DNA from: Psammoneis japonica
Taxonomy: Eukaryota
Direction of reading: 5' to 3'
Assembly: GCA_008632985.1 (NCBI GenBank)
Contig: QPGO01000071.1
Location: 297,516-361,515, forward strand
DNA length: 64,000 nt
Shown here one piece after another: positions 4,657-46,400 of this stretch. Made by a program: the position numbers and the translations under genes. The first letter of the stretch is position 1, and every line of letters starts with the position of its first letter. The notes under the pieces were generated by a model. That model made no database searches. It was given only the letters and a program-made list of their open reading frames with translations, and was not told the DNA's origin.

Positions 4657-5060
4657 GGGGGGCACATTCCAGCTCCAGGTGAGACCTTGCACTGCTGGGC
4701 TGCATGTGACATGAGAGTTTTTTGTCTTTCACCACACTCTACATGCACACACTTCTTCCATGTGTGCACTCTTCTGCAAAATTGCTGCATGCTCTCTCTT
4801 TCACAAAGCCAAAGGCTTTGTTGTGACCATTTGTGAGAACAAAAATGGGCTGGGCATTTGCTTCAATGTCTGAAAAAAAACACCCAGGCAAACCAGAAAT
4901 TGTGCACTCCAAGCATGACGAGTGGTGAGTTCACACATTCACACCAAAGTTGCCTCTTTTTCTGTTTGCTGTCATCAGCAAATTCATCATCTGACAGCTT
5001 TCCCACAAAGGTTGCACGTGAAATTCTTTGAGCTCAATGACACACAGAGTGCCTCCAGCT
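4657..5060 (+). repeat. Dispersed non-coding repeat, copy 1
   Basis: Core GTGACATGAGAGTTTTT..TTCTGCAAAATTG..CAAAGCCAAAGGCTTT..CTTCAATGTCTG shared with 29350-29720 (+) and 31030-31210, 31245-31418 (-). Confidence 0.7.
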
Positions 5061-9299: not shown

Positions 9300-11020
9300 T
9301 TTGCTGGCTGCCTGCTCTCTACAGCGGCTGTCGATCCGTCAACACAACACAATGTAATGCATGTGCAGGTGACATGATGTGAGGACAATCTGACATGTTG
9401 CCAGAAACTGCCAGTCTGTGTCAAAGCAAGTCTGACGCAACCTCTCAAGAGTGGTGAGAGAGCTGCTGCCCCCAGCCATCGCTGGAGTGCTTCTGCACCA
9501 CATGACACAATGACGACACAGGCCATGCTGGCTCCACAGTGCACGGCGGGCTGCTGGGATTGTGGGTCACTGTGCTCCAGGTGGATGCCAGAGGTTGGCC
9601 AATGCTCTCACCTGTTGCTGGGGTCAAGGAGGAATGCATGCTGCTGGAGCACAGATCATTCAAGAGGTGCGGCGACACATGGGGCCACAGGCTGCTGCTT
9701 CTTTGGTGGCTGGGGCTCATGATGGCTGACAGCCATGGCTGAAATGGTGCGGTTGCAGTCAATGCAGCAAGCAGTTGAAGACAACAACACTTGAAAGGTT
9801 TGCAGCCCAGGTGCTGCACCATGGAAAAGAGCAACAATGCAAAGGTTGCGCTCGATGTTTGGAAACAATTTCCACCTCTTGCTTTGTCCACAAAGAGTTT
9901 CCAACTTGTGGCAGTCTGTCCTTCACAAGTCATGTGGCTGAGCAAAAGATCTGGGATCCCCACAGCTCAGATCACAGATCACAACACAAACCTGTGAAGC
10001 ATTGCATCCATGACCACGACCATGAGCTGCAACATCAGACAGATGACAAAAAAGAATGCTGCAGGCATGGAGAATGCCTTGAAGAACAGAGGCAGCACCT
10101 TGAGGACGACAAGGATGACATGTGGTTTGACTTGATCAATGATGAGATTGCAAAGAATCTGTCCATGCTGCACTTTTAGATCTTCAACCATTGCCACCAG
10201 AATTGCAGATTCTTCCAAATGAAAAAATCCTTTTTTGTGGCATTTGAGAAAGAGATGGGGCAAAGTGAAGGGTCCCATCGTTGTTGGTGCACCGGCAAGT
10301 GGCTTGATTGGAACAAGATGCCTTCCAAATCCAGCGTGAAAGACACCAACAAGATCATCATTGAGGCCTGGCCTCGTGGTGCATCCGTCCCAAAGCATTG
10401 CGACAAATGCAGCAAATGAAGGGGGGGGCAACAGGAGAAGGGGATGACAGAAGAATGACGCCACAGTGTGCGTGAAAAACATGAATGTGCAGATGTGCTT
10501 CTAAATCAGAAACAGGAGCCATGTGCAATTTTCCAATTTCATCAAAACCCAGGAGACAGGCTGCTGCTGCTCCTTCATCACACAGCATTGTGAGCCGGTC
10601 TCTCAGTTGAAAATTGTGGTCTTGAGGTGGTCAAGTTTGCTTTGCGGTCTCTCAAAGGTTTCTGCTTTTGAATGATTTGCCTTCATGGACAGCAGGTTTT
10701 GCAACCATGGTGAAGTGGAAATGCAAAGCTCACAAACTCAACCCAAGCAACCATCACACTTGCTGCGTCCAGAGCAACAGCTCAAAAAGACAATCTCTTC
10801 CACCCCTTGGAGAGGTCACAAGGCTTGGGGAGAGAAATCCCCCGTCTTTCCACACTCCTCCTCTGTCGACTCTTGCATGTGGGCAGTCACAAAACTGCCT
10901 TTGCTCTGGGTTCCCGCTGCACCACGAGCTCATTTGTGATCAGTCGACAAGCACACATCTGTCAAAAATCAAAAACAAGAACATCAAACTCCTTCTCTCA
11001 GCTCTGCGGCTAGCGGCCTC
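9300..11020. other. TpA/CpG-depleted hypermutated domain 2 (island inside a divergent promoter)
   Basis: TA almost absent; contains a decayed + strand ORF at about 9960-10420; bracketed by the 33-bp direct repeat. Confidence 0.85.
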
Positions 11021-17199: not shown

Positions 17200-19250
17200 T
17201 AGCAATGCCTGGTTTAAAATTCATCATCACGTCAAAATCACTCATGCACAAGTCGCGTGTGATGTACCAAGTGGTGCCGGTGTGGTTGGAACAGCAGACA
17301 GCAGGGTTGGAGAAAGTGTGTCATGCAGGATGGAAAAGATGGTGTGTTGGTAGTGGGTGAGGCAAGTGATTTTTCAAGTTCCAGGGCATGCCGGGCAAGC
17401 TGATCTGCAAGGGATTGGGTGACAGCATGGCTGATGCTCTAAAGACCACACTTGGAGGGAGCAGCCATGGAATTGAGCAGGGGGGGGGGGGGGGGGGGGG
17501 TTGGCTTCCAGATGGCAAACTGTGAATGGGAAGATGAAGACACCTGCTTGGTTGAGATGGGCTGTTGTGGCAGGAATGTGAGCACCACTGTGTGTCTCAA
17601 TTCAAACTGGAAAAGAGGTGCTGGCTTTGGAACAATGACATCAGCCCATGCACATGTGAGGGAAGATGTCGAGGCAGTGGACAGTGTGAGTGCTTGTCAA
17701 AATTCAGCAGGGCATCCAAGTGGAGTGTGAGGCAGGAGAAAAGGTTTGCAGGTTCATGGTGGACCACACAGAGGTGTTTTGTGACAAAGATTGGCATGAA
17801 GGCCAACTGTCCAGGGGGTGGTGGCAAAGAGGCCATCAGAAATGGATCTCTTGGAAAGGGCAGTCCTGTGACTGGCAAGAGGTCAAACAGAGCAGCAGAA
17901 GGGTGGTTGCTGTGAGGGTCAGCAGCTTCACAATTACAGCAGGACATGTGGGCAAGAGCAGGTTGACATGGGAAGACATCAGCATGATGAAAAAGGCCTT
18001 TTGATGTTTGCTGTGCTCTTGATCAAGCAAGCAAGTTGGTGCAGAGGGCTGCTGACAAGCAGAAAAAGCAGGGGTGGCATTGCTTGAAGGGTGTGCAGAG
18101 AGCCATGCTGCACCAGAGAAAGTGGAGCTCATTGTGTTGGAAAAGTGCTGTCAGGGTTTTTGTGTGTTGAGCTGCTGGGCTGCATTGGAGATTTTTTCAA
18201 TGTGTTCTGCATGCAATTTCTGTGTTGTGATGGTGTGCCATGATTTTCCTGCCATGCTTTGTGCAGAGACAAGCGTGGCTAATGGCTCTGTGCAGTTCTT
18301 TGAGGAGAGGACACACATCGCTGGCTTGTTGACACAGCGCCTGGTGACAAAATGGGTTTCCAGGACTTTGCACACATGTGGGCAGCACTGAGACATTGAG
18401 GCACATGCACTGTGCCACTTTGCTGTGGCTGATTGCTGTTCACAGCAATGTGCTCAATTTCAATGTGGAGAAGCACGGCAGAAATCTTTGGCACATCATC
18501 CCATTTTCCCATCTCCAGATTTTCTGTCTCTGCTCATCCATGCCAAGCAATGTCCAAAGCACAGTGGCCCTGCTCACATGACTGGAGATGAGCCATCATC
18601 CAGCTTGGCTCTCTCACTCTGAATCAACTCATCCACACTTTCCGTTGTGATGACAGGCGTGGCAACTGCTCACATCTGGCGCCAACCCTCTCTCTGAGGC
18701 TCGCCTCAGAGCAGCGCCCAGGACAAGCGCTTCTTGGTTGCAGCTCCAACATTGTCATTTTGGCCTTCAGCTCTGCTGGCATCTTCCTCCTCCTGTTTGC
18801 CCTTGACCAACTTGGACTCAGGCATCACCCAGGCATCACCTGCACACCTTTGTCTCCGACCCAGATCTTTTTCTCACACCAGCACCTCCCCACCTCCCCT
18901 CTCCTCCTCCTCCTCCTCTGCNCTCCTCCTCCTCCTCCTCCCCCCAAGCCCCCTTGGTCTGCTCCCTCCAATTTCTCCAACTCTCAAGCCTCCTGCTCCA
19001 CGTGCCAACTCTCCCTTCTTCTTCGAAGCAACCTCCTTGCCCGCGCCAACACTTCTTCTTGGAAACAACTCTCCCCCCGCCCGGCTGCTTCAGATTGTCC
19101 CACTTGACTTCTCCTCTGCCCCACAATCTTGGGTCACCCAACTTCTCAGCCTCAACATTGGCCTTGCCCTCTCCAACCACCTTTCTACCTGCCAATCTTT
19201 TCTTCGTCGCCACCCCACTGCCATGCACCATGCACACTGTGCCGGTGCAT
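17200..19250. other. TpA/CpG-depleted hypermutated domain 3
   Basis: TA near absent; contains G21 at 17480-17500 and a (CCT)n pyrimidine tract at about 18890-18945 with an N. Confidence 0.8.
17250..18050 (-). mobile_element. Possible relic of the C-terminus (zinc knuckle + RLE endonuclease) of a CRE-like non-LTR retrotransposon
   Basis: Decayed CCNC..ADPHSNH (cf. CxC..DxxGDH), HRTALS..ISDGLF, VHHEPANL; needs de-mutation and frameshifts; a similar tail (SWVTQLLSLNIGLALSNHL) lies on + at about 19100-19200. Confidence 0.3.
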
Positions 19251-19797: not shown

Positions 19798-20172
19798 TGT
19801 CAAATATGTTTTCGGTTCAAGTGACGAGGCCGAGCATTTGACTGAATGAAACGATGTTCGAGATGCAGCCTCGGTTCTGTGGACTTCTTGCAGTCGAAAC
19901 CACTCGAATTCGAAATTTTAAGCGGACACGACATGTTACATGTTTCGCCGTAGTCGTCGGCCATTTGTTTCTAAGGAACGATGTAGGAAGGACAAACCAT
20001 GTCTTATAAGCTCTTTATGATATTCATAATTTGCAAATGAATAATTGAGATTTCAATGAATGCCGAACATAGAACGGTCAGACACATTTTCTCTCCATTG
20101 TCTGGAGAGCAGGTTTTGCTCCACGTCTGACACGTCACCAGTTTCAGCCGCACAAGGACATCAGTTTATGTT

Positions 20173-20463
20173 TCCCTGTTTCGAAAGTAGTCGTAGAAGC
20201 GACTTGGAAGCAGGAGACAAGGAGGGTTGCTATTTAGGCTTGCGAGAGCATTTTGCGCTCGAGGAAGATACAAGATGTGTGCGCGTCGTTTTCTGCGCCG
20301 CCGCTCATCATGTCAAAAGTCCCTGTTTCTAAAGCAGTCGTACAGTAGAAGCGACTTGGAAGGAGGGGACAAGGAGGGTTGATTGCCAGAGGCTTGCGCG
20401 AGCAGTTTTGCACTCGAGAAACATGCAAGATGAGTGCACGTTGTTTTCTGCACCGCCGCTCAT
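20173..20463 (+). repeat. About 140-bp tandem duplication straddling a domain edge (20173-20308 / 20320-20463)
   Basis: TCCCTGTTTC.AAAG.AGTCGTA..GAAGCGACTTGGAAG..GACAAGGAGGGTTG..TTTTCTGC.CCGCCGCTCAT present in both copies. Confidence 0.9.
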
Positions 20464-20949
20464 TCTTCTCTTCTCTGCTTCCTCCACTGTGCTGTGTGCG
20501 CCGTCAGCAGCACAGAACAACTCCCACAAGTTGTCAAGAGGCCATGGTGAAGGGTTGGTGTTGTTCCTTCTATGAAAATGTGATGCCTGTGTCAGCACCT
20601 TTGATGCAGCAGAGTTCTTGGACAACCTGTGGCTGCCTGATTGATGCAGTGTTGTGTGGTGCAAGCCGGGATGACGTGGGCGATCTTGGTTTGTGCAAGA
20701 AATCAATGAACCAACTCAACAATTGTGCCAGTCAACCTGGCACCCTCTGTGGATTTTTGGCCAGCTGGCAGCAAAATGCTCTAGACTGGCATCTAAATGG
20801 GAAAAGACAAAGCGAGGCACACTGAACATGTGGTGGTGGAGGAGCATCACACCAGCCGTCAGCTGTTCTGTGCCTTGGCACTTGGCAGGGCCCGCTGTTC
20901 TGTGCCTTGGCAGGGTGCTGTGGTGCAGCGACATGTGCTGCCCAAAGTC

Positions 20950-23750
20950 AAGGCCATCTGTCACCAATTTTCAACAGAGGCAGGTCCCCAGTTCAGGAGC
21001 TGACAAAGCAAAAATCTTGAAATCTAGCACACACTGTCAAAGTCTGTTCAAGACACCTCAGATGCACTTGCCCCATCCTCCTGCTCCTCTGTGCAATGAT
21101 GTGGATGTGTGAGGTGGGGCACCATCTTTGCATCTGCTTTTGGGCTCCTTTGTTCTCAGCTGTGCTGCAACCCATTTCCACAGCACAGCCTTTGCTCTGG
21201 CTGCAACTGGCTGGACCAACACTCCTGTGGTCCTTTGGTGCCTTTTTCTTGCCACTGCAATGATGGTTCAAGCCAAGGTTGCTTGTGTGTGTGTGTGGTG
21301 CTTCAACAATGATGTGACTGAGTGGCCATGAAAGAATCATCAGAAATTGGCTAGAAACTGTTCTGTGCTGCATCAAAAATGGCATCACACATGCCCACCC
21401 AGCTCCAGCATTGCCCGTTCTTCACTCAGCCAGGGGTGTGGTGCATCAACCTGTGTTTTTGCATTCCTTGTGGGATTTTGAGTGGCTGTTTGATTCAACA
21501 GCACAGCACCCACCTGAGGCTTGTCTTCTGAAAAAGCACCGCTGGAAGTGCTTGTCTTTTGCATGATTGATGCCTGCTCTTTTGCCACACAGCCTTCCAG
21601 AAGCCTGTCCCAACCAATGGTGCTCTGGGTTAGAATGGCTCTCAACTCCTGCTGCTGCAGCATTGTTCTTGTCTGTCCAGAAGATGTTTTTTTGAGAAGT
21701 TTGCTCCATTTTGTCATGGCTTCTGGGCATGCCATGGTGTGTGCTGCATCTTCATCCTCTCTTTCACATCAAGGGCATCTAGAGTGGGTCTTGGACTTTC
21801 CATCTCTTCAGCCATTTTCCAACTCTGCATGTTCCTGTGGAGTGCTTGCTGACCACTGGCAGCACCCTGTTCCCAAGTTGGTTAGAAACTTTGTTGATGG
21901 CCTCCCAGCTGACTCTTTGGCCTGGGGTGTGTCTTCCTTGGTGCTTGTGTCATTTTCTGACAAAAAATTCCAAAGGTGCTTGATGCCCCTGCAAGGCACA
22001 CTCAACGCTTGTGCAGCTGGGGGTGTGTGTTTTTCTTGGTGCTTGTGTCATTTTCTGGCAAAACTTTCCAAGAGTTCTTGGTCAAAAATGCTGTTGCAAG
22101 GCATTCAAACAAGGTCCTGTGTGATTTGCCCAAGAACCTGCCACCAACTCCAATTTTGAGTCCACATGCATTTCCAGCAGAGCTTGTGTGAGGTCACCTG
22201 CAACTGTTGTTGTTTCCCATGTTTGAGGAGGGCTTCAATGTGCTTCCTGAACATTGTGTGAATTCAACTGATTTGAACATGAGTCCTTGAAGTCTCTTCA
22301 CAGTCCCTTGAGTGCTGCTCTCAAAAGATCAGAGCTTTGATGTGCTTGCATTTTTTGGAGTTGTGGGCAAGCACATGAGCACATGACAACTGATCACTTT
22401 GCAAATCTGTTGCACAAGTCGTGACAGCCATGCATCTGATTTTGCAAGGTGGCCAGACTGCACATGGTCAGCCCAGGAGCATGCCTCTGCTTGTTGCTTG
22501 GCGCCACCACTGCCTTGCTGTGGTTGCCATTTTGTGCCAGCGACACCTCCTGAGTCTTCTTTGCTTTCCTTTGATGCAGGCATGACATCTGTTGCTTTTG
22601 GTCATTCTGGTTCTTGATGCACATGTGCAGATCATTCTCATTGGATGGATTGATTTCATTTTCCACATGATGTCATTCCCTGTTTTCCATTTTTAACTCA
22701 ATTTGGTGCCTTCAGCACTTGTCAGGCCACCACACATGTCTCCTCCAGCAACCCACACATCACCTGCAAATTGGTTGAGCCCTTCCTGCATGTCCTTGGC
22801 TGCTTCCAAGCAGCTTGGCCAGTGAAGATCCATGGCAAAAAAGGCAACCTGGCAAAATCTGTTGGGTGCCTCCATTTTCTTGTCTGAGACCCTGTGAATG
22901 CTTGTCCTCCAGATCAAAGTGTGTGGCCTCAAAGGCTGTCTGAAACAAAATGTCTGCTCAGGCCATCTGACAATCAGAGCCCATTGCACCTTGTCTCCAA
23001 AGAAACCACCTTGTTCAATTTGAGTGCCTGCAGCAGAGCACATCCTGTCAATCAGGAGAGCCCCAGGGTGACATGTTGCAGAGAGATGATGTTCCTCCCT
23101 GCACTTTTTAGATGAGACATTGTGCAGCTGCATCTTGTCAAAGCTTTCTTTGATTTTTGTGTTCCATTTCTGAGCTGTTTCCTCAAGAAGATTTTGAGTC
23201 CATGCAAGTCTTGGGCATCTGCTGTCATTGTGGTTTTCTCAAAAGAATTTTCAGTGCTGGGACATGGTCATCAATGAGCTGCAATGATGCCAAGAATGGC
23301 GGCTCCAGTCTTGCCTCTGAATCTTGACCACAGGTCCATCTGCCTGGCCTTGTGGGGTCTGTCCCTTTCATGACTGCTCTGTGTCCTGCTTGCTCAGGAC
23401 CAAGGTGCCCCCAGGTTGACAACGAGAGAAGTGTGCATCATCTGTGTTGCACCCCACACAGAAATGTGTGGTGGGAGCTCCCAGTGCTTTCTGAGTCATG
23501 CTTGTGGTTTCATTTCATGAGGCAGGGGGTGGGAGCATTCTCCAGCAGCTTTTGGTTTCACTCATGTGTGAAATGCTGGTGCTCTTGTCAGCCACCACTT
23601 GATGGATGCTGTCATTCTTTTCTCTTCATTGGAGCTTGGGACCCCATTGATGTTTTGGAAGGCTGTGCAGAGGGTGTCCTCTGTCTTGCATTTTGTGACT
23701 TTGGCCACACAGGTGTTGCAAGGTTTTGGTTGGTCTGTGATGTCTTGTGC
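20950..23750 (-). mobile_element. Degenerate APE-type non-LTR retrotransposon (LINE): endonuclease, RT and C-terminal zinc-finger remnants
   Basis: In order on minus strand: AFQNINGVP (about 23650), GTDPTRPGRWT (about 23350), MQEGLNQFAGDVWVAGG (about 22760), WADHVQSGHLAKSDAWLS (about 22450), HIEALLKHG, RCP*CEREDEDAAHTMAC (about 21750), QSTIGWDRLLEG (about 21610). Confidence 0.7.
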
Positions 23751-24218
23751 CCTGTTGTTGTTTCTTCCCAGGGGTGGCCATCTCTCTTCATCAAGGAGCC
23801 ACGTAGCCACAAGTCCTGTTTTTGCCTGCTGAGCTTTTTTTGCTTGCCAGCTTGAGTGGAGCTGGGGGGGTGACTTTCCTCCCCATGTCGCAGTGTGTGG
23901 CATTGCCAGAGATGCTTCTCTCCTTGCCATTTGTGTTGTTGGGCCACTCAAAGAGAACTTTTGGCAATCTTGGTGTCATCACCTTGGGTGCCAGGCATGC
24001 TGCCCTCATTGCCAGAGCTGCTGCTTGTCTTGCCCTTGTTTGTCAGCGCTGCTTTGAGTTGTGACACAAGCAATCTCACAGAAGTGTCCCTTGTTTCCTT
24101 CTGAAACAAAGTTTCCAGAAAACAAGCGAGCGACATTGCAAATTTGATTGGTGTGTTTTGTGGTTTCTTTTTGGTGGTTTTTGCTGTGGCTGCCACATCC
24201 AATTACAAAAAAGGCTGG

Positions 24219-24752
24219 TTGTTCTTGTGAGATGGTGTGTCACTTGCATCACTTGCATTGTTTGTTGTTTCTTGGGTGCAACATGGGCTGATTTGCCATT
24301 TTAGACACTGTGGGCTGACACAATTGTGTCTTTTTCATCCAATCCTCCTTCTCCAAGCATGACTGGATCTGCCGGATTGTCTGGACAAGTGCCCTTTGGT
24401 GGTGTGTCTCCAATGGAGCACCCCCCATCTCCTTCTTCTGCTGCAACCATCACCAAGATTCTTGAAGCTGTGCTCATGCTGTCCTTGATTGTCCTTGTGA
24501 AATGGTGTGTCATTTGCATCATTTGCATTTTTTGCTGTTTTTTGGGTGCAACATGGGCTCACTTGCCTTTTTAGACACTGCGGGCTGACACAATTGTGTC
24601 TTCATCTAATCCTCCTTCTCCAAGCATGACTGGATCTTCTGGATTGTCTGGAGTGTCCTTTGATGGTGTGTCTCCAGTGGAGCATCCCCTGTCTCCTTCT
24701 TCTGCTGCAGCCATCACCAAGATTCTTGAAGCTGTGCTCATGCTGTCCTTGA
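24219..24752 (+). repeat. About 270-bp tandem duplication (24219-24488 / 24489-24752)
   Basis: Near-identical units ending CACCAAGATTCTTGAAGCTGTGCTCATGCTGTCCTTGA. Confidence 0.92.
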
Positions 24753-25929
24753 GGGAGTGAGCTCCTTGAACACCACACCAACTTTGGTTCTTGGGTGGAT
24801 GGCTTCATGTTTCTCTTTTTTCCAGCCTGCCTTGCTTCTCTGCATGTGCTGCACATGACAGGAGAAAGAACTTTTCCATGTTCTTGCCATGCTTGAGATG
24901 TGGATGTGGGAGCACATGACACATTGGGGCCACTTTGTGCTCTGTTTGCAGATCACACAGGGCTGCCACACATCTGCTGCAAGCATTGGAATGTGTTGCT
25001 CCAACTTTCATGAGTTGAGGGACTTCAGGCTTGTGGTTTGATGAGACATCTGTTGTTGTCATTTTGCGCAGAGAGTGACTCCTCAATTTTTGGTCAACTG
25101 CATCAAGAGCTTGTGCGTTGTTGAGAATGAGAGTCTTTGATTGTGTGAGGCATGCTTGCTGCCAAATGTCTCCCTTGTCAACTGGATCAGATTCAGTCAA
25201 ACTGATGTGTTGTGAGCATTGAGGCATCAGTCTGGCTGATGTTTTGAGCAGCTGGTTCTTGGTGGCCCTGGAAAACGTTCATTGGAGCATGGGGCATGTT
25301 GTTCTGGCACCATTGGAGAGCCAACATTGTTGCAACAACCTGTTGGTTGCAGGAGGTCCCTTCTGCAGCATCTGCTGGTTTCATGACTTTCTTTGCTCTA
25401 AGCTCCACTGGCTTCCCAAGAAGCTGACTGACCCTTGGCTCCATTTTCACTGGGTCAAGTTGGCCCGACATCATTGTTGGCCAACCACAGCTTGTGGTGA
25501 GTTCTGCATTCTGTGGAACCTTGGGTTTGCACTCTCCAGATTTCCAGACAACTCTTGCCAATTCTTCTGAGTTGACCACAAGATTGATGTTTATTTTGCA
25601 CAAGTTGTGCACGCAGACAGAGGAAGAGGATTTCTCATGGGAGACTGGGCAGCCTGTTCTGCCTTTGTTGCAGTGCAATGAAAAGCAAAGAGAACTGTTG
25701 GAGCATGTTCCAGCTGAGCCATTTCTGTTTGCGGCTGCTGTGGATTGGAATGATCACTCAAGGTCATTAAAAATGAAATCACTGCCCAGCAATGATTTTT
25801 CATCCAGAAATGTTCAACAGGAGATGTTTTTAAAATGGGCCCCATGTGCCAGTGCACAGATCTCAAAAAAGAGGGGAAACAGCAAGACAGAGCAGGGTGC
25901 AGAGTGGATGCAATGCTGGTGACAAGGAT

Positions 25930-27150
25930 GCCACTGACAATCCACCATCATCCTGAAGTGAAATGATGTTCTCTGCAACTGCATGGCCACTCATGGCAGC
26001 ACTGTGTGCAAATGCCCAGTTGTGTGCATCGCCATCAAAAGGTGTGGCTTTTCCCACAAAAAAGAGCTTGTTGCTGCTGACAGGTCTTTGCATTGCATCA
26101 ATGGCGCAGTCACAAGATGCTCCCACTTTTGCCCAACAAGTGCAACCCATCTGAATGCATGGTTCCTCAACCCAGTTCTGAACAACACAATTGACAAGCT
26201 TGGATGAAGCCTTTCCATCAACATTTCATCCAAGTCTGCCAAGACTCCATCCACAGCACAACCACCTGATTGCTGGTTGCATTGACATGTTGATCTGCAA
26301 CAGCTCCACAAACAAAGAGCCCCAAGATGCCAGTGTTTGAAGTTTGGCCAAATGTCTCATCTCAGCACAGCCTCTTGCCAAAATCACTCAATGAGAGGTC
26401 TTCCACATCAAACTCATCAAAATCACATTCAATCACAAGCACCAAAAGGACAAAATGCATCTGTGTGCTTGCAAAACACCTTGATCCCAGGGGCCATTTC
26501 ACAGTCATCAATGGCTTGAGCGCAACTGTTGGGCTGGTCTGGAACAAAAAAAATGGCCTTGTTCTGCAACATCTGCCTGCATGATGCCTGAAACAACCAG
26601 TCTCTGTTTTTCCAAGAAGCTTTTATGAGCACGATGCTGTGGTCTGTTTGTGTCATGGGACAATCAAGAACGGTGTGTCTTCTGGATTCAAAGTCGACAC
26701 CAGTTGGTCATTGAGAAAGTCCCGTCACATTGAATTGACCCACTTGCAGTCATTTGCTGATGGTTCAAAATCAGCACAGTTGCAAATCAAAGAACCATCC
26801 ATGTGGACACCTCTGACACATGATGCTTGACTGTCGAAATGCTGCTTGCTGCATCTCTGTCTGCAATGGGATTCAAAGCTGACACTGGATCACTGTGAAT
26901 CCACTCTCCACCAACATCAATGGGAAAATCAGCCAAGGTGTTGTCTTTTTTCAACCAACTGCTGATGCAATCCAACACCTCGAGAATTGTGTGGGAAAGA
27001 CCTGCTTGTTCCAAGCATCAGGCTGCTGTCAAACCAGCCGCACCTGCTCTGACAACAAGAACATCCATCATGTTTGGTGCCGATGTGACAAACTGCACAG
27101 AGCAGAAAATGTTGTGGCAGAGAAAGCTGCTGCGGTCATGACAGAAATGA
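25930..27150 (-). pseudogene. Flavin-containing amine oxidoreductase pseudogene (hypermutated)
   Basis: DVLVVRAGAAGLTAA*CLEQAG.SHTILEVLDCISSWLKKDNTLADFPIDVGGEWIH (FAD fold), QNWVEEPCIQMGC, LFFVGKA, WAFAHSAAMSG; stops and frameshifts. Confidence 0.85.
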
Positions 27151-29349
27151 CGTGAAAGTGCAATTTTCAAATTTCAGATTGCCGCTGCATTTGCCACATC
27201 ATGATTGCATCATGATGTTGATGACATCAAAGGATTGCCATGTCATGTGGACATCATGTCAATGACGTGCATTGTCAAGGTGCATCTCATGCATCATCGT
27301 CTCTTGCCCCTTGCTCATGCTGTGCCCACTTGCCTCATCAACTCAGCTCAGACCAACAATCTTGCAAATTGTGCTGTGCTCTTTCTGGCAAAGCTGCCTG
27401 TGGTGAGCTCAGTCATGCCCAAATTTTCTTTCTCAATTCACAACCACAGATGGGGCAGAGTGTCAAATTTCACAAAATGTGCACTCTTCTCCACTCACAA
27501 AGTTGGCATGGGAGACAGGCGAGCATTGCGATGCCCTCCTGTGTTCTCACAATGAAGGACATCAACCAGCATCTGTGGAGGCAGTGGCTTGTTTTGCCAC
27601 CTTTGCTGCTTTAAAGTCTGTGTCTTCTTCTTGCACAGTTTCCAGGGGTCTGGCAAGCCATCTTGCGGTGCACGTGTGATGTGAGTTGGTTGCCCGCAGA
27701 AGAGCAGGCACTGTCTCCTTTGACGTTCCCACTCACAACACTCTTGATGAAGAGGAGAGATTTGGAAGAGCTGGGCTTGGCTGCACACATCCTGTGTGGC
27801 TCCACACATGTCCCCCAAGAGGTGCTGCACCAAACATTCTTTGCAGTGCTCCTGTTGTGCTGCTGCCAGCTCAATGGATGAATTGCTGCCAGCAAGGAAG
27901 CTCTTGCCAAGAGAAGATTGGCTGGCAAAGGCTCAATGGTCAACATGTGCACAATTTGTCTGTGAATTGAGGGTGGTGGCTGCTGGTCATGCTGCATGTG
28001 AGCCACGCACAAGACCCTCTCATGAGTTTGGGTGTGCAAGTTGATCCACTGGCCACCATTTCTCAATGTTGTGAATCTTTGTCATCCACAGTGTTCTTGG
28101 ACAAAGTTCTACCTGCAGTGCATTGTGCATCATTGGCGCCATCTTCATGTTCTTTGTGCTGTGAGCATGCCATGTCTTTCCAGCAGCACAGATTCTTGTC
28201 AGCAGGGATAAAGCCAGTGGACCATCATGGCTGCCACAGACATCAAAGCATGTGGCAACACTGTGTTGCTCTGCTGAGAATGTTCCAGTCAAGAGTGAAA
28301 ACCGTGTTTTGGACCAGCATTGTTGTGCCTGCAGCCCACAAACAATGCAGTCCCTTGCTGCTTGTTGTGGCCATGCTGACATCAGCACCTCACCCCTGAG
28401 ATCAGCTGTGGGCTGCCCAGGTGAGTTGCTCCATTTGGGGGGGGGGGGGGGGGCAACAAGCACCCAGATGGCATGAAAAAGCTTCCCAACACATGCTTTC
28501 ACCAACAGGTCATCCATCTCTCCATGCATGTTCAAATGCTCCATGCAGGTCCTCCTCAACTGTCTTCCAAAGTTGCCTCCTGATCATGGTGCTCTCAGCT
28601 CTTAATTTCTCTCAGCACATTGACAATGGGGAGAGCTCAGATCAAGTTGCAAGTGGGCCAGATGATGTCACAATTTGTCTGCTTTGAATCATTGCACATG
28701 CTGAAAAATCCTGTCTGAACTGCAAGATTGGAGCCGCACCCACACAAGATCTTGCTCCCCTGTGCAATGTCATGATCCTTGCACATTTTTTCAGGAAATG
28801 AAGATCCCCAAATGCGCCTCCCAATCAATTTGCTCCTGTGTGGGGTCAAGTCCTCTGCATTCCCCAGGGTTTGATTGACTCCTTGACAGCAACAGGGGGT
28901 GTCACTCCACTGGAGCTAAAATCACTGCATCAGGGCTGAGGTTGTCCTTGCACCATCTGCACCACAGATGGCAGTGCCTTTGATGACACCCCCCTTGCAC
29001 CAGCAGATGAATGTGTGGGGCTGGTGAGCCCTGCACTTGACACACTGCCGCTCATGGAGCAGCAGGAACAAGTGCTGGTGGGCAGACTGGGCCTGGTGCC
29101 ATCATTTTGTGCAAGACCCTTGACATCAGAATGTTGCAGTTGGGTTGGGTGAGCATTTGCTGATGGATTGTGCAGCTGCAGCTGGCAATGCCACTTCCAT
29201 TCATGGCAGCACTTCTGTCACCTTCTTGGGCAAGGAGCAGTTTTCCAGAGCTGAGCAGAGCCATGAAGCACCAGATGGTTGACTTGCCCAATGTCCAAGT
29301 CTTCATCTGAGTTTCTCTGGATCATTCCTGCTGACAGAACAAAGGCTGC

Positions 29350-31418
29350 ATGTTGCAGCTCTGGGTGGGACCTCACACTGCTGGACTGTGACATGAGAGT
29401 TTTTGGGTCATGTGCCGTGTGTCACGCGTGCACATTTCTGCATGTGTTCTTCTGCAAAATTGTCGTGTGCTCCTTGTTTTGCAAAGCCAAAGGCTTTTTG
29501 TTTTCCACCCATTGGCAAAAACAAAAAGTGACTGGGTGTGTTCTTCAATGTCTGTGGAGTGTGCCTTGCCAAGCTGGAAATGATGCACTCCAAGAATGAA
29601 AGAGGAGATGCAGTCACAAAATTGCCTCTTTTTCTGTTGATGACAACCAACACATTCACCACCCTGTCATTTTAGTGCAAAGCTTGTGTGCAGAATTCTG
29701 TGCACAAATGTCACACAGAGGAGCCCCGCCAAGGGCTGGAACACATCGGTCATGGCTTTCTGCCACAGTCTCCAGCATGGGTGAGAAGGAAATCCTGCTT
29801 GTTTTGGCCACTCAAAATTGAAGTGAGACACAGCCACAATGACCAAGATTTGCACTGCATTCAGCCAGTCAACAAAAGCCAATCTTCCTGAGCTTGTTGC
29901 CTTTGTGGCTCCTGTGACCAATGACCACATCTGCTGGGTGGGAGTTGCTCTCTTTGATTGGTTGAGTTGCCTCTGACAGGGCCAGAAGGTCAAAACCCCA
30001 TGTTCGCTGCAAAATTGTGACAGTGATTTCACCCAGGCATCTGCAGCTGACAGCTGACATTGTTTGCTGCTTCAGAAGCTGGAGCAAGCAAACCTTCTGG
30101 AAATGCTCCAGCTCAAGTGTTGTCATTTTGAGCACTTGTTAAAGTTCTGTGCTTGTGTCAGAAGGTGAGCCTCCAGCTTCAATGCCTGGGGTGATGCAGA
30201 TTTCTGATGCTCCCATGCTGCTGCTGGATTTCTTTGGTGTGCACGGGATTTTCTGCAGAAGCAAAGGGTCAAGGACAGCTCATCATTGGCTTCTTGCTGA
30301 TCTGCTGTGCACACTGTTTCCTTGTCAAGAAGAAGGAGGTTGCAGCCAATGGATGTTCTGTTGCTCTCATGACTCCACCTGTGAGAGACAGCCATGCCTT
30401 CATTTGGTTGATGTGGTGTTTGCTGCACTTTTTTTTTTTAGAATGGAAATTCTGTCACAATGTTTGGCCAGCATGTCTGCTTCTGCCAAGCAAATCACTT
30501 CATTGCAACACATTGTCAAAGTCAAAAACTGCCTCTGCAACATTCAGTGTGTGCTGGCTCACTCCAAATGTCCAAGCTGGTGGCCAACAAATTTGTTGAT
30601 CTTTTTGGGGCCAGTCATGTAGAAAAGAGTGCACACAACTCAGTTCTCCCAATTTTTTGCATCAACAAAAAATTGTGCCCCCAGAAGATTCTTCTTTTTT
30701 GGTGTGCATTCTTTGCACAACAGAGAGAGAGCAGACATCCTTTCAAAAAAATCAAGCACAGCAAAAGAAATGGAAAATCTGCTGTGCCCACATTCCCATT
30801 GTTTTGCCCCCAAAAAACAACTCCAAAAAAAGAGAGCTTTCTCTCTTTTTGTCTGCACCCTCCAAAGAACAAAAAAGGCTGCTGGTTGTTGTCCAATGAA
30901 AGAAGATGCAAAAAGGTGAGAAAAGCATGAGCTCAGATGAGAATTTTTTCTTGCACAAAAAGTGCCATGACAGAAAACAGACAGATCCAATGTTGTCACA
31001 CCCCCTCGTAAGTCACACGGGGATGAAAACACACTGGCACCACTTTTTTGTTCTTGTGAGCATGTGTCAAAATGGAAAGTCTGCAGCTTCACAAAACAGG
31101 GAGCACAAAACAATTCTGCAGAAGAGCGCATGCAGAAATGTGTGTGTGCAACATGTGACACACAACAGAAAAAACATTCATGTCACATCATGCCAGCACA
31201 TGTGCCCCCCCTCCTGGGGCTGCAGTGTGTCCTTCAAACACTGAATGAGAAAACACTTGGCCAGCAGTTTTTGTTTTCACAAATGGTGCTGTGACAAAAA
31301 GCCTTTGACTTCACAAAACAGTGAGTGTGAAACAATTTTGCAGAAGAATGTGTGCATGTGACATGCAGCACATTGTCAAAAAAGCTCTCATGTCCTCACA
31401 GTCAAGCAGTGGCTGGCC
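29350..31418. mobile_element. Possible non-autonomous TIR element: a + copy of the dispersed repeat (29350-29720) facing two - copies (31030-31210, 31245-31418)
   Basis: Reverse complement of 31245-31418 reads CACTGCTTGACTGTGAGGACATGAGAGCTTTTT..TTCTTCTGCAAAATTG..TCAAAGGCTTTTTG, matching 29375-29500; no TSD identified. Confidence 0.45.
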
Positions 31419-31543
31419 ATGAGGTGCTCTGTTCAGACCAAGGCGGTGGAGCACATTGAACAGCCAGCCAAATGCCACAATCATCAGCATTCCCCAGAAA
31501 GTCATGGCTTGTTCACAGCAGGAAGTGTGACTTTGGTGAAAAC

Positions 31544-31861
31544 AGCTGTTTGTTGAGCACCACACCTGCACCAAATCTGAGGGCTGGCTGGCACTTGAAG
31601 GCAGGCAAAAAGCATGGCTTGCATGCAGGACTGACAGCCCTGGTGGGGGCTGGGCAAACTCATCATGAGCACAGTTTTGGGGTGCTCAGAGGCACACTGC
31701 AAAGCAACAAGAGCTGTTTGTTGAGTGTTGCAACTGTGTGCATCAGATCCAACAGCTGGCATTTGAAGGCAGCCAACAAGTGCAGCTCACACACAGGTCT
31801 GGCAGCCCTGGTGGGGGTGCCAGACACACTCATCATGAGTGCTTTGGGGTGCTCAGAGGCA
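31544..31861 (+). repeat. About 168-bp tandem duplication
   Basis: AGCTGTTTGTTGAG..GCTGGCA.TTGAAGGCAG..CAGCCCTGGTGGGGG..ACTCATCATGAG..GGGGTGCTCAGAGGCA occurs twice. Confidence 0.85.
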
Positions 31862-31957
31862 TCAAAAATGACACCAGCAAAGTGCAGGAAAATTGCACAA
31901 AAAGAATCATGAGCCACTGAAGTCATGCCGCCACTCAAATCGATGGCCCATCCTTTG

Positions 31958-32843
31958 AGGTGGTGTGGGTGCAAAGTGGGCCAGGTTCTGCACACACAGA
32001 GCTCAGTGTGTTGTCTGCACAAATTGCCAAAGTCAGCTTGCCAAATCAAATCTGCCAGATGATGGAAACTTGAACATGTTTCACATGACAAAGTGTTCAG
32101 AGTGCTCATTTGCACTCCCATTGACTTGTTTGTGGAGAGAAACAACATGTTTTCTTGCACTCGTAATTTGCAGCATGGCTCCACAAAACTTGAGCATTAT
32201 GATTTTGGCACCTTTCTTGTCAGACTCAGTGTGTGTGATTTGTGCAAAGGTGGCGTGGGTTCAAAAGTGGGCCAAATTCTGCACACGTGGAGCTTGGCAT
32301 GTTTTCCACACAAATCGGCAAAGAGTCAGCTCACCAACTTCGACCCTCTCCATGATGATGGAAGCTTGGATGTTTCGCACATTCAAGCATTTGGGCCACT
32401 CATTTGCACTCCCCTTGACTTGCTTGTGCAGAGAGAAACAACATGTTTTCATGCGTTCGTCATTTGTTGTGGCCACGCAAAACTCAAACGTCGCAATTTT
32501 GGCACCTTTCTGATTGGGCTCGGTGTGTGTCTTTCAAAAAGATGTGAAAACATGTTGTTTCTCTCCACGAACAAGTCAAGGGGAGTCCAAACAAGCACTC
32601 CAAACACTTTGTCATGTGAATTGTCCAAGTTTCCATCGTCTTGGAGAGGGTCGAAGTTGGCAACAAGCTGACTTTGGTGATTTGTGCAAAGGTGGCACAG
32701 GTGCAGAAGTGGGCCAGATTCTTGGCACGCAGAGCTTGGCATGTTTTCCACACAAATTGCCAAAGTTAGCTCACCCTCTCCAGGACAATGGACAGAAACT
32801 TGGGCATGCCAACAAGCTCTGGCCCACTTTTGCACCCGTGTCA
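31958..32843. repeat. Foldback-like array of a 290-bp unit (direct, direct, inverted partial, direct partial, short inverted)
   Basis: Units at about 31958-32250 and 32248-32530 (+), 32547-32676 (-), 32677-32790 (+), 32821-32843 (-); shared AAGTGGGCCA, CATTTGCACTCCC.TTGACTTG, GAGAGAAACAACATGTTTTC. Confidence 0.8.
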
Positions 32844-33199
32844 TCATCATCTAATCTGAATCTGAACCCCCCCCCCCTTCCCAAAAACGCACTGATTGAC
32901 AGACTCCTCTTGCAGTACAAATTCTACACACGGTGCACAAGATTCACACTTCTTCGGCCAGGCACCTTGAACCTTGAACCTTTGCTGCGAGCGAGACTGA
33001 TGAAGAAGCCCCGCGCGCCCCCAGCCAGCATCCGCCCCATGAACGTCGAACATCCGTTGCATGTGGTTGCCTCAGTCTCATCTCTACCGGTAGAGCCCTA
33101 CTCTAGCTAGTAGTAGAGGGCTCTGGTCTCTGGTTCTACGACTACAGTGCGGCAGTCTTCTGTAATAACATTGATTTCCTTGTGATAAAATCGACAATC

Positions 33200-38899: not shown

Positions 38900-38999
38900 G
38901 TTCCCGACAGCCTGCCTATTTTGCTTCGCTTGATTTTATGTTATTGACGTTCCGTTTGGTCTCTATGGTAAGTAGTGAAACATAGAAACCGCTTGACCA

Positions 39000-40810
39000 C
39001 TTGGGTTTTGGAAGCACTCACAACAGTGGTGCCTTGACACTGAAAATGACACTTGACAATGAAAATGAGAGGAATGCATGGAGCAAATCCAGACATCATC
39101 ATCGTCCATTGTCGCGAGGAGTCGCGACCGGTGTTGGTGTTTCAGTGCGTGTGCTGCGTCAATGACCCTTTCCGATCTTTGGACAAAAATAGAAGAATTG
39201 TGACTACTCACTCCGCGCCCGCGCTGGGCTGCTGCTGGCTGGGCTGCTGGGCCGCTCTGCCCTGCTCGTCGCGCGACCAGAGGGCACGTCCCACAACAAC
39301 CCCCTGCCATTGTTGGGGGAGCTCCACCAGTGCTGTCAGAGTCTGTTCCATGCCCCCCACGCTTCTTGGAAAATGAAGCATCTCCAGCCACTCCAGCTCC
39401 CTTGTCCACTGCACAGCAGCTGCAGCACCAGCATCCAACACAGCAGCTGCAGCGGCGCCTTTGGTGCGCCGCTGTTGCAGCACAAGCTCTTTGCCCGAAG
39501 CAGTGCTTCCCATGCAAACCACCCTGCCTGCACTGTGTTGCTCTGACTCTTTCAAGCTCAGTGTCTGTTTTGAATTAAGCAAGAACAACCAAGTTGAGGC
39601 ACAGGCCATCTTGCACTTCCTCCGTCTTGTTCTACACACAACCTTTTTGTTTTTTCTGGGACACCAGCAGCAGCTCCTCCTGAGTTGATGCCTGGCCAGC
39701 AGAGAGGAGGATTTGAGAGTGGTCTGCAAAACCCCTCCAAAGACATCTGCTGGAGAACTCCACCACAATTTTACAAGCTTGGCAAGGCCAGAGCAGATTT
39801 CAGCTGGGCCCTCCTGCAAAACCCACGCGCACAGTCAAAGCAAAAGCAGCCGACTCTTCCTGCAAGCCCCCCCCCCCAGCCACCCCAAGCAGCATGGAGA
39901 AACAACTCCAGAAATTTTTCTCATGGATGACCCAGATGTGCCCCCCCCCCTGGCATGGCAAGGCACTTCTTCTTGCTGACACTCTGTGCTGGCAGCAGCA
40001 ACCCCAGCTCTGTGCAAGATCGCTGCCACCCGGCATGTGTTGGGAGGGCAGAGCAATGTTGGGGAGGAAACCATGTGTGTTGCTCTCTGGATTTTACACC
40101 ACTCACCACACCATGCTGCAGCTGCTGGCTGCCTCCCCCCCCTTGCAACAAAGATGCGCGCCATGCCACGAGCACATCGCACACTGTGGGCTGCCCCTTG
40201 ATGGCCCCTTTTGCCTCAATTTTTTGTCACACTCACACAAGAGCTGCAGCTCCAATCTCTGTGAAAAAGGGGGAAAATGTGCTGCCTTGTTGTTTGAAAA
40301 GAATCATGTTGCCACCAGCACATCACAAGGGGTCTTTTCCTGTGTGGTGGTGTGTGTCCCCCCCCCCCCCGCCACCACTCCAGGAGCTCAAGGGATGCCC
40401 CCTTGCTCTTTCAATTCAGTCATTCAATTCATCATTTGCTGCCTTTGTGTGTGAAAATTCAGTGAAAAAACAAGGGACAGCCAAGAGATTTCCAAGAGCT
40501 GGGTGATGCTGCAAAATCCAGAAAGGTGGCTGGGCATGTGTGTTTGTTCCTTGCTCAATTTTGCCACTCTGCATGCTTTCTGTTCTCTCTCATGCATTGT
40601 TGACTTTCTCTTTTCAATCACTTGTGGCTGACATGGGATGGAAATCTGGCTTGCCATCCCAAGGTCAAACAGGGCATGTCATCAATGCTGGGTGCCATTG
40701 TCCACAGGCTCAGACCACTGTCTGGTGTCATGCCTTTTTGGGACATCGAGAGAAAATGGCTTCCATCCAAAAGCCTGTTCTACATTGTTTGCACTCCCAT
40801 GACTGCAACA
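39000..40810. other. TpA/CpG-depleted hypermutated domain 5 (between the two GT paralogs)
   Basis: TA near absent; several poly-C tracts; ends about 30 bp from the paralog B stop codon. Confidence 0.85.
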
Positions 40811-43041: not shown

Positions 43042-43479
43042 GTTTTCTGAACCTTACACAGCTTTAATTCTGGTGAAGGACTTCTGATGCTGCTTGTGCT
43101 CCTTAGAAGTACTGTACAGTGGCAATCGATTGTTCTGGTAAGACAAAACACAAAACACTAAACACTTGAACCTGAAAAGAGAACAGAGAGCGCCTATGGC
43201 GAGGTGATTGCCGTTCGCATTCGTTCAACTCAATACCGACCACGACCAAAAACTGCCACCTACCTACAGCCCGCGCGCAGAGTTACTGTAGTCGATCGTT
43301 TTGCCGTCCAAGAAAAAAGACTCGACTGTGTAGGACGGAACGGAATTCGTTGTCAAAGATTTATGTATGTTTAGGTCTCTCTAGTAGTCGTGCTCTCTGA
43401 ATATATTCGGCACATATACAAGAGTGGGGGACATGCTGTACACAGCACGAGTCGTACATTGGTTAGCGGAAAAAGCCGT

Positions 43480-46400
43480 GTCATGAACCTCGGTCGTCCA
43501 AGATTGCCAGTCACCACCCACAGACCCCCATGGTCTGCAGAAGTCCCACAACACCAGTGGCAGCATGTCCAGCATGCAGTTGAGGACTGCAGCAAATCAT
43601 TTGTGGGAGCATGACACAGTGCAACTTTCTGCCAGCAGCACCAGTTGGCGAGACCTTGGTGAACGACATCCAGAGACCAGCCCTGTTTGCCCTCTCAAGA
43701 AAACTTTTTGGGGCTGTCCATCCATTGTTGTCCAATGGAGTCTGCAGCTCAAAACTGCAAAGTGAGTGCTCTGACATGCTCACACATGATTGACTCACTT
43801 CATGGACACTCTCAGTTTTCTTCCGCAGTCTACAAGGACACCATGTGTGGAGTGAAACGAGAAGCAGCTGACGGAAAGTCAAAGTGCACAAGAACATCAC
43901 ACACCATGCAGTGCAAGTCATGCACTCTGGCTTGCATTGCATGTGCAAAATGGAGCCCACCAAAATGCAAAGGACAAAGGATGCAAGCACAACATTTGGT
44001 TGCCATGCTTTCTGAGCGCAGCGAGTCTTGTTGGCAGCAGAAAATTGACTGCAAACAAAAGAAACAAAAAACAATCACATGTGTAAAAGAGAAACCAAAC
44101 AATGTCACCTTTGCTGTGAAGCAAGACTGCAAAACACCAGGAACAATGTTCAAAACCAATCTCTTCTTCCTTGCCTCAATGGCGGTCACCACTTGTCTCA
44201 CTTTTCTGCGCCAGCAATGGCCGCTGAGATCTGTCCGCAGCAACCGGCAGCTGAAGACAAAGTTGCTGCTTTTGCCAAGCTCCTGGCACCAAGATCCCAC
44301 TGTTTTGCATGGGCACCATTGTTTGTTCAAAACAAACAAACAAGCTGGGGTCTGAGGACCCAGCAGCCACCGGGGTTTGGCCCTGAAGGTTCCTGGAAAA
44401 GATGTGTCCCAGCAGCCGTGCGAATGAGCTTTCACCAGCACCAAAAGCATGGATTTGTCCAAATTTTAATGTTTGGCAAAACACTGACAAGACACTCGCA
44501 TCAGTGTTGCAATGCCATTGTTTTTGTGCAATCAATGTTTTTCATTGTGACATGAATGAGTTGCAATGCAGCACCAGTGGATGATTTTTGCCAAAATTTT
44601 TAAAGATTCACACACCATTGCTGTTTGGAGGTTAATGTGAAATGTTTCTGCTGCATTTCACAGTGGTGGTCTGCTCACACAAAATTCTCTGTGACATGAG
44701 TGCTGGCATGCAGATGGCATTGAGCATGGTCTCTGCATGAAAACTTTTGTGACACATGTGTCTGTGAAGACTTGGACACAGACAAAAAATCATTTGAACA
44801 TTCTCACTCTGTTTGAACACACAAAAGCCAGAGTGCATGAGTGTTTTTTAATTGACAGCCTCAACACACGAAGCTTGTGCAAATTGTGCTCAAAAGGGAG
44901 TGCCGTTTTGTGTGTCACCTGGGACTGGAACACATCAAAAGCTTGGGCAATTCAGTGCTGCACCATGATTGGGGATTTCAAGCCTTTTTCCTTTGCCCAG
45001 AGAACCAGGGCAGCTTGCCCAGGGACAAAGGTGAATGGTTCCTCCAGCAGAGGCTGCTGCAAGCCAATGCCCCCAGGGAAAAAAGGCCAAGCTTTGAATG
45101 GAGTTGTCAAGCTGGTGTTCAGATCTGTGCATGAGATGACTCAAGCACTTCACTGTGGACAAACCCAAGGGAGTGGAGGGAGGCAAAGCAAGGAGATGAT
45201 GCAAGACACCCAGGAAGTGCAATGGATGGTTGCCAAGGGCAAACAAGTTCCACAGGGAGCCAGTTGTGGACATCAAGCAGGGCATTCTTCAACAAACAAC
45301 TTGGGAAGATTTGCACTGGAAGATTGTGGCAAACTGCAAGAAGCAACAGGACAATGGGGGAACAATGAGTCAGACAACAAGGGCAAGCATGTGGTGAAGA
45401 ACTGTGCTGAGATGCACCAACTGGAGTTGACTCCTGTTCAGCAGCAGGTGAAAACCACACATTGGCACTTGCATTTGCCCATGATTTACAATGGGTTGAA
45501 GCACTGCACCCCAAAACAGCAAATTGAGAATGCCAGCACACCAGTCAATTTTGTTGGTCTGTTTCCAGCAAAGCACAATGGAGTGACTCAGTGTCGTCAA
45601 TTTGTTGTGTGGCACCACATTTGTTGGGTTGTCATGTTCTTGATTTGAAACAACAGACATCCATTGGAAATTGCAGACATTTGTTTGTTGCCCAACTGCG
45701 CTAATTTTTTGAATGTGGGGGTGATTTTTGATGAATGTGACTGGTTGGTCAAAAAGCAAATTTGCATGATTGCACTCACACATGTTGGCTTTTTGTGCAG
45801 ACTTCAGTCTGGTCATGAGCCATTTGGAGAATTCACAGATTTGCCCCCCAATGTGTTCTGCTGTCAGCAGATCAGTTTCATCCAATGGCAGAATGTCTTC
45901 TCCCTCAACCAGGTGTTGCAATTGTCTGCTGTCAAGCATTCTCTCCTGGGCCCTTTGTCTGGGAGCATCAGATTCATTGCAAACAAGTTTGATGACCAGA
46001 GGGGCAAGGGCATGATGAGCCAATCAAATGCTTCTGATGCCTTTCCCCCAGTTGTGCCCCAGAAATGATGCCAGGCAGTCCCCAGCTTGCTGGCATGAAA
46101 AACCAGGAGATCCAGAGCCTGGCCACTTTGCAGATGCTCTGGCCTCAGCATTTGGAGTTGTTGATCCAGAAAATCCTAAAGGAGCAACTGTTTCAACCTT
46201 CTGTGTGAGGCCAAACTGAAATGTGGTTTGGCAGGATTTTTCTCTCTGGGGCCTGGGTCCAGAGTTTGCATGAAAGGATCTACAATGTGGGAGTGACAGA
46301 TGCAAGCTGCTGTCCACCCTGACAAATCTCCTGCAACGGCTTTGGAAACATCTGGGTGAACCAACAGATTGTGACAATGGATCTTAAGTTTGTCAGAAAA

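Follow-up and report, generated by a model that had tools for sequence, protein, structure and literature searches.

The stretch of 64,000 nucleotides from Psammoneis japonica analysed here (contig QPGO01000071.1; referred to below as the window) raises the question of how one dinucleotide can be almost erased from long blocks of DNA, and of what decides which copies of it are left. Counted per kilobase, TA and CG are both near zero in blocks with a G+C content of about 0.5; positions 22001-23000, for example, hold 1 TA against 67 expected, together with 4 CG. Six TA-poor tracts (T1 to T6, Table 1) sum to 25,810 bp. Within 20400-31000, the core of the largest tract, the ratio of observed to expected counts is 0.04 for TA, 0.11 for CG, 1.88 for CA, 1.81 for TG, 1.31 for AA and 0.98 for GA, compared with 0.56 (TA), 1.01 (CG), 1.19 (CA) and 1.16 (TG) in the gene-bearing reference parts and 1.17 for AA outside the tracts. 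The TA sites that survive are probably the residue of a sequence-selective mutator, the rate of which is set by the base 3′ of the A and which acts on the two strands independently. Taken as a whole, the explanation that we consider probable is that the gene-free tracts were mutated in place, from TpA to TpG or CpA, with ordinary CpG loss in addition.

Survival of TA sites according to their flanks

With R for a purine, Y for a pyrimidine and N for any base, TA sites fall into three classes: YTAR, in which both strands read TAR; mixed sites (YTAY or RTAR), in which one strand reads TAY; and RTAY, in which both strands do. The 29 TA sites in 20400-31000 comprise 21 YTAR (TTAG 7, TTAA 6, CTAG 4 and CTAA 4) and eight mixed sites (GTAG 2, TTAT 2, and CTAT, TTAC, CTAC and ATAA once each), with no RTAY. 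A sequence-only reading of this region had reported about 29 sites, about 21 of them YTAR and about 8 other; these figures prove to be exact, and the nine places that it named are all present to within one base. The predominance of YTAR is significant against a null of 1/4 (P 1.1e-7), against the share of YTAR among TA sites outside the tracts (0.171; P 8e-11), against the Y_YR_R share of tract pyrimidine-purine steps (0.229; P 2e-8), and against the value computed from how often NT and AN dinucleotides occur in the region itself (0.321; P 1e-5).

Because the hypothesis arose in 20400-31000, it is more fairly judged on the remaining tracts of the window. There the 40 surviving sites divide into 21 YTAR, 18 mixed and 1 RTAY (P 3.5e-7 against 0.171), whereas the 1449 TA sites outside the tracts divide into 248, 830 and 371, respectively. 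Over all tracts, RTAY accounts for 1/69 survivors against 26% outside (P 3e-8). The tracts were delimited by mapping each TA and CG close to their edges, so that the limits depend on the TA positions themselves; robustness was checked by trimming the ends, and removal of 200 or 400 bp per end leaves YTAR, mixed and RTAY counts of 42/25/0 and 39/21/0. The survivors are also independent of one another, since only one pair has look-alike contexts and its removal takes the 69 sites to 68. At 24215..24752 (+) lie two tandem copies of about 270 bp that are 88-93% alike; TTAG is kept in both (24302 and 24572), and the differences between them are nearly all transitions, mostly outside TA.

Transitions leave the purine or pyrimidine class of a base intact, and the flank class is therefore a transition-proof yardstick for pyrimidine-purine steps. 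With the ancestral TA share of each flank class estimated from the share of pyrimidine-purine steps that are TA outside the tracts, survival is 0.26 for YTAR (42 of ~161, or ~74% lost), 0.048 for mixed sites (26 of ~544) and 0.004 for RTAY (1 of ~258). As a control, survival of CG in the same flank classes is 0.14, 0.22 and 0.23 in YTAR-type, mixed and RTAY-type order. The lack of a YTAR-like gradient for CG indicates that the method itself makes no gradient, and that CpG loss lies outside the flank rule.

These figures can be described by a model in which the A of each strand is lost independently, at a rate kY next to a 3′ pyrimidine and kR next to a 3′ purine, so that the three classes suffer losses of 2kR, kR+kY and 2kY. 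The ratio kY/kR is then 3.7 (95% interval 2.8-5.0) with a goodness of fit of P 0.41, and a likelihood ratio of 80.9 rejects a model without context; when the ancestral TA share is taken as uniform, kY/kR is 2.8 (2.2-3.7). Depletion is far from equal across the NTAN contexts after normalization, a result that would have spoken against the preference proposed by the sequence-only reading had it been otherwise. In the window, the density inside relative to outside the tracts is 0.32 for TTAA, 0.28 for CTAA/TTAG, 0.10 for CTAG, 0.079 for GTAA/TTAC, 0.054 for CTAC/GTAG, 0.028 for ATAA/TTAT, 0.018 for ATAG/CTAT, 0.013 for GTAC, and 0 for both ATAT and ATAC/GTAT. An additive model with four rates accommodates these ten strand-symmetric classes (deviance 3.06 on 6 degrees of freedom, P 0.80) and is better than the two-rate model (P 0.002), with rates of 3.22 for a 3′ T, 2.06 for C, 0.93 for G and 0.50 for A (6.4 : 4.1 : 1.8 : 1). 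The preference for TAY is thus real, at about 3-8 fold, and it is not absolute, as about three quarters of YTAR sites are lost as well.

The influence of the flanks extends beyond the immediate neighbor. A follows at +2 in 58% of survivor half-sites (30% outside) and at +3 in 41% (29% outside), and the remaining bases at +2 each take a share of 0.13-0.16. When +1 is a purine, the process cannot itself change the A or non-A state of +2; in such half-sites A is found at +2 in 65/110 survivors, compared with 457/1326 outside (P 5e-7) and with 1622/5650 of tract CA/TG steps (P 9e-11). Among TAG half-sites, 31/41 have A at +2. Resistance is thus greatest for TARA, which the opposite strand reads as TYTA. 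The target preference put forward by the sequence-only reading therefore holds insofar as TAY is preferred, and is refined in that YTAR is not immune, the 3′ base acts in the graded order T > C > G > A, and an A at +2 protects.

Survivor counts alone cannot separate the adjacent A from the distal T as the base that changes, but the products can be compared when all mixed contexts are oriented as Y-YR-Y. In this orientation the tracts contain 1822 TG and 1192 CA, against 1573 and 1316 outside (TG share 0.605 versus 0.544, P 3e-6), which corresponds to a gain of ~791 TG versus 329 CA and a loss of ~518 TA and 602 CG. In the 2.5 kb of tract that keep most of their CG, the gain is 64 TG versus 21 CA (P 0.046). 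The excess of TG over CA indicates that the pyrimidine-adjacent A is the base changed, TAY becoming TGY (or RTA becoming RCA). Graded survival, replication and products thus all favor the earlier suggestion that the mutated base is the A in TAY, equivalent to the T in RTA. Direct examples come from the tandem duplication across the left edge of T4 (Table 1), in the second copy of which GTAG has become GCAG, ATAC has become ATGC, and four CG have become CA or TG; these are the only two clean TA changes that the duplication offers. At 21553..21554 the window reads TG, and the only contig there of public run X1 reads CA, possibly two alleles in which a single ancestral TA (or CG) was resolved differently; this is the sole hint of recent change in the tracts.

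A probable mutator and its alternatives

In the proposed mechanism, the A of each strand in T-A would be attacked independently, fastest with a 3′ T and progressively more slowly with C, G and A, and an A one position further on (+2) would slow the attack again. RTAY, with TAY on both strands, would be driven essentially to extinction, sites with TAY on one strand would be ~95% gone and YTAR ~74% gone; as YTAR loses least, it dominates the TA that remains. Such an agent would recognize about four bases of a single strand (T-A-Y-not A). If this explanation is correct, there is about an even chance that the agent is an adenine deaminase of the TadA/ADAT2 type that acts on DNA, the inosine it forms pairing as G.

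Several points weigh against this explanation. All counts come from a single 64-kb window with only 69 survivors, and the ancestral TA numbers per context are estimates from the gene-rich DNA outside the tracts. The gap between T and C may be overstated, since a change of TATA to TACA gives the flank a new label. Division of the TG gain needs an assumption about CG: the fraction of TA going to TG is 0.95 with an even split of CG, and 0.71 with 70% of CG converted to TG. The survivors of T5 are 5 mixed versus 1 YTAR, and the CG-keeping parts of the tracts retain 0 YTAR versus ~15 estimated ancestral sites (~4 survivors expected at the overall rate), in comparison with 28 of ~103 retained in the CG-poor core. 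Alignments of paralogues are too short to supply the ancestral sequence: the upstream regions of two paralogous genes (38850-39650 versus 42985-43790) are not alignable, and a gene-copy pair (2560-3300 versus 8350-9090) is alignable over only ~170 bases. Finally, the counts point to no particular enzyme; deamination of A and modification of T leave the same footprint.

Among the alternatives, indirect read-out survives best, although we regard it as unlikely. Here the flanks would act through DNA shape or stacking and not through base contacts: an A on a 3′ purine run (TARA, TAAA) would be hard to flip or would lie in stiff, nucleosome-poor DNA, and an A between pyrimidines (T-A-Y, alternating RYRY) would be easily reached. 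The resistant contexts are purine runs, with A at a frequency of 0.50 at +1, 0.58 at +2 and 0.41 at +3 against 0.24-0.30 outside, and the extinct contexts alternate, with 0/260 ATAT and ATAC/GTAT and 1/111 GTAC surviving on outside-scaled numbers. Shape predicts the same as direct read-out with the present data. TAGA is as protected as TAAA, and the effect is therefore not simply that of A-tracts.

It is rather improbable that the T of R-T-A is instead the target, through oxidation of the TET/JBP type to 5-hydroxymethyluracil (5hmU) or 5-formyluracil, which would pair with G at times and yield T-to-C changes. This route concerns the same base pair as the A of TAY and is indistinguishable from it by sequence. 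Against it, 5hmU pairs normally with A, so that mutagenicity would need further oxidation, and to our knowledge it has not been reported from diatoms, although no search was made for such a report. In favor of the route, 5hmU in dinoflagellates is described as marking and silencing transposons (PMC11572971), and older work on Crypthecodinium cohnii, as cited in PMC11572971 and PMC11071213, placed it preferentially in TA and TC. Base-resolution mapping of 5hmU in Breviolum, in contrast, is reported to show no sequence preference (PMC11071213).

There is a slim chance that the surviving TA sites are new arrivals, produced by C-to-T changes at the abundant CA and TG, and that their counts reflect a steady state of arrival and removal. 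At least one TA may indeed be new, since 32198 has TTAT where the CG-keeping sister copy (repeat family D17) has TCGC; 24607, with CTAA in the first of two tandem copies or in the second and CCAA in its partner, is readable either way. The flanks of tract CA/TG steps, however, are flat (each base at 0.24-0.27 at +1), so that ~23% YTAR would be expected among arrivals and not 61%. In a steady state, removal would still have to depend on context (kY/kR 8.3), and the additive-strand version of this model describes the data less well (deviance 6.97, P 0.008) than does simple decay (P 0.41).

It is very improbable that ancestral TA was already mostly YTAR, or that YTAR sites, which read TAA or TAG on both strands and include transposon targets such as TTAA, were kept by function. 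AA and TT are abundant in the tracts (AA observed/expected 1.31), but only 1411/6156 tract pyrimidine-purine steps (23%) are Y_YR_R, a class untouched by transitions, and TA would need to have been several times commoner in these steps than elsewhere. Neither ancestry nor selection predicts the asymmetry of TG over CA among the products, and this reading is further opposed by the lack of coding signal in the tract frames and by CG survivors, which show no such context effect. Hardly credible is a sequencing or assembly artefact, in which a modified base would make the base-caller read TA as TG or CA. The source platform is unrecorded, and the window may itself derive from the only run containing the stretch. 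The contigs of that run (31-letter words) agree with the tract at 0-4 differences per 1-5.5 kb piece, and its bins covering 20334 to 29004 have a word depth of 64-84 versus 50-83 in gene-bearing bins, but this support is weak if the run is indeed the source; runs X2 and X3 cover almost none of the tract, from which nothing is concluded. Strand-specific miscalls would be expected to split words by strand and to create CG, which is depleted, and the same mutation class has been described as arising de novo in another alga (bioRxiv 10.64898/2026.01.13.699255).

The tracts and their surroundings

The window represents the nuclear DNA of a diatom. Among named relatives of the open reading frame (ORF) at 11633-12979, the best are diatom proteins with 72-82% identity, and long ORFs outside the tracts carry eukaryotic and plastid-related domains, namely ERGIC/COPII with thioredoxin, COPI-associated and WW domains, as well as those of a sigma-70 factor, an FGGY kinase and a class 3 lipase. 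Metagenome loci near relatives of ORF 11633-12979 (69 loci, 394,559 bp) showed no 1-kb window with TA observed/expected below 0.2 in the 29 loci of at least 3 kb that were scanned; as metagenome contigs favor unique, gene-rich DNA, this is not evidence of absence.

Table 1. The TA-poor tracts of the window, their surviving TA sites, and the duplication at the left edge of T4
Feature	Coordinates	Strand	Surviving TA	Remarks
Tract T1	2710..5836		8 (6 YTAR, 2 mixed)	
Tract T2	9356..11010		2 (2 YTAR)	
Tract T3	17441..19185		2 (1 YTAR, 1 mixed)	Window's single N at 18922
Tract T4	20347..33084		36 (23 YTAR, 12 mixed, 1 RTAY)	Largest tract, 12.7 kb; mostly CG-poor too
Core of T4	20400..31000		29 (21 YTAR, 8 mixed, 0 RTAY)	Region of the sequence-only reading
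Tract T5	38984..40780		6 (1 YTAR, 5 mixed)	Between two paralogous genes
Tract T6	43465..48212		15 (9 YTAR, 6 mixed)	
Tandem duplication, ~155 bp	20150..20480	+		Across left edge of T4; first copy untouched (alignment)

The edges of the tracts are sharp and adjoin intact genes. TA loss extends 300-500 bp past the CG-poor core at 38984-39500, 47726-48212 and 5528-5836: the left ~500 bp of T5 (38984-39500) keep 26 CG and 2 TA, and the right ~490 bp of T6 (47726-48212) keep 19 CG and 0 TA. This difference between the edges of the two losses indicates that TA erasure is faster or wider than CpG decay.

The tracts are probably silenced repeat DNA. Two parts of T4, 29005-29671 and 32340-33006, are very high-copy repeats, with word depths of 4662 and 1135 versus ~70 nearby in one public run; loose ends of other copies of these families have TA and CG, and some copies elsewhere may be unmutated. 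In a self-comparison of the window, repeat copies within the tracts have an identity of 0.89-1.00 when written in purine/pyrimidine code and of 0.6-0.9 in bases, and the comparison in that code finds no long repeat pair between a tract and the DNA outside. The repeat copies at 32176-32236 and 32470-32530 are nearly only transitions apart, with ACGTCGCAA kept in one and GCATTATGA in the other; here a CG appears to have been turned into TA by changes on both strands, a rare route to new TA. A Pfam scan of the 79 tract frames of at least 110 amino acids left 78 without a match and one with a sub-threshold WD40, and it found no transposon or viral domain among them. The two longest tract frames look like composition-driven noise.

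Gene copies also occur inside the tracts, as a partial copy (2595-3122) of the gene at 8236-8874 (− strand) spans the left edge of T1. The paralogous ORFs that flank T5, at 36713-38935 and 40843-43053 (− strand), encode 740 and 736 amino acids without a Pfam match; their DNA is 76-89% alike over the aligned blocks, their spacing is 4.13 kb, and T5 fills the gap between them. Two further ORFs without a Pfam match are internally repetitive. ORF 13410-16643 (+; 1077 amino acids) contains at least 8 tandem 72-base units at 14830-15621, a stretch that is very C-rich (381 C per kb) and looks like a repetitive protein, and ORF 54043-56073 (− strand; 676 amino acids) contains a duplication of ~575 bases (54053-54627 and 55163-55737) with copies 89% alike.

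Comparison with known systems

In Neurospora and other ascomycetes, repeat-induced point mutation (RIP) converts CpA to TpA and thereby enriches TA. Like the change seen in the tracts, RIP is local, dense and restricted to transitions and obeys a dinucleotide rule; it acts on repeated or foreign DNA with nearby genes spared, as may the process in the tracts. Its direction and chemistry are the opposite, however, since TA is erased here and CA and TG are up to 1.8-1.9, and RIP was rejected on these grounds. Deamination of methyl-CpG is in keeping with the depletion of CG (0.11), but it explains CG loss only, whereas TA loss is wider and graded by the flanks.

DNA polymerase eta (Pol eta) has a WA motif, in which A is mutated in TA and AA alike. 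The argument against it made from sequence alone, that AA is abundant, holds up (observed/expected 1.31) and applies equally to ADAR. ADAR hyper-editing of double-stranded RNA resembles the present case in its A-to-G outcome and in favoring U 5′ of the edited A; its 5′ preference is given as U=A>C>G, and the 3′ preference of ADAR2 as U=G (PMC11120146). ADAR was nevertheless rejected, because AA is not depleted (1.31 versus 1.17 outside) and G, favored 3′ according to that source, is a poor 3′ neighbor here. Furthermore, the edges of the tracts run through a duplication and adjoin genes, as would fit a process acting in place on the DNA. 5hmU on dinoflagellate transposons is, as described, a repeat-targeted thymine modification that could give T-to-C changes at TpA; it differs from the process in the tracts in being known as a mark and not as a mutator.

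TadA and ADAT2 offer a closer, though partial, likeness. Native TadA is reported to depend on UACG, and TadA-8e to prefer UA with no clear downstream preference (PMC12296453). As in those enzymes, T or U stands directly 5′ of the changed A, for only TA is erased in the tracts and not AA (1.31), GA (0.98) or CA (1.88), and a 3′ pyrimidine is favored as in UAC. Departing from the reported UACG motif, a 3′ T outdoes C, and +2 shows avoidance of A only, with no call for G. The resemblance to TadA suggested by the sequence-only reading is thus borne out at the 5′ T, and fails in that 3′ T beats C and that G is not favored at +2.

The nearest known case is Bigelowiella natans, a chlorarachniophyte, in which 230/231 single-nucleotide mutations in two integrated viral regions of mutation-accumulation lines are described as either A>G or T>C changes, every one of them at TpA (Mettrop et al., bioRxiv 10.64898/2026.01.13.699255). 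This result indicates that a TpA process is real in living cells. As reported for that host's integrated giant-virus and virophage DNA, change in the tracts is local and confined to TpA becoming TpG or CpA, with TpA falling and CpA plus TpG rising; here this pattern is found in the dinucleotides, the repeat copies and the edge duplication alike. The cases differ in host, a diatom versus a chlorarachniophyte, and in extent, with TA observed/expected at 0.04 here compared with a Rho of 0.45 given for the Bigelowiella natans viral region. Unlike the viral genomes described there, the tracts are gene-free, repeat-bearing and depleted of CpG too. The authors of that preprint name RIP as a comparison and likewise propose an ADAT2-like adenosine deaminase (bioRxiv 10.64898/2026.01.13.699255).

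That 2026 preprint is the single description of TpA-directed A:T-to-G:C hypermutation that a literature search returned; the SPLASH preprint that also came up is unrelated. In its main text the words 'context', 'flanking' and 'trinucleotide' are absent, and its Figure 2B ('mutation motif') and Table S2 may bear on the flank rule. The TpA-erasing process is thus already known in kind, and what is new is the rule for the flanks together with its additivity across strands. The rule implies a reading of about four bases on one strand, independence of the strands, and behavior unlike that of ADAR or Pol eta. For an enzyme assay it supplies a definite order (TAT > TAC > TAG > TAA); it also predicts that TAA and TAG would outlast tyrosine codons in mutated elements, and would be a sharper detector for other genomes than plain TA depletion. 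Extended sequence rules are the kind of evidence that identified the APOBEC, AID and RIP-type mutators. Tentatively, and with the odds somewhat against it, the footprint 5′-T-A-(T>C>G>A)-(not A)-3′ may be the fingerprint of a new eukaryotic DNA adenine deaminase aimed at silent repeat chromatin, either shared by diatoms and chlorarachniophytes or convergent between them. If so, the fingerprint could pick the enzyme from among candidate deaminases and reveal the same defense in other genomes.

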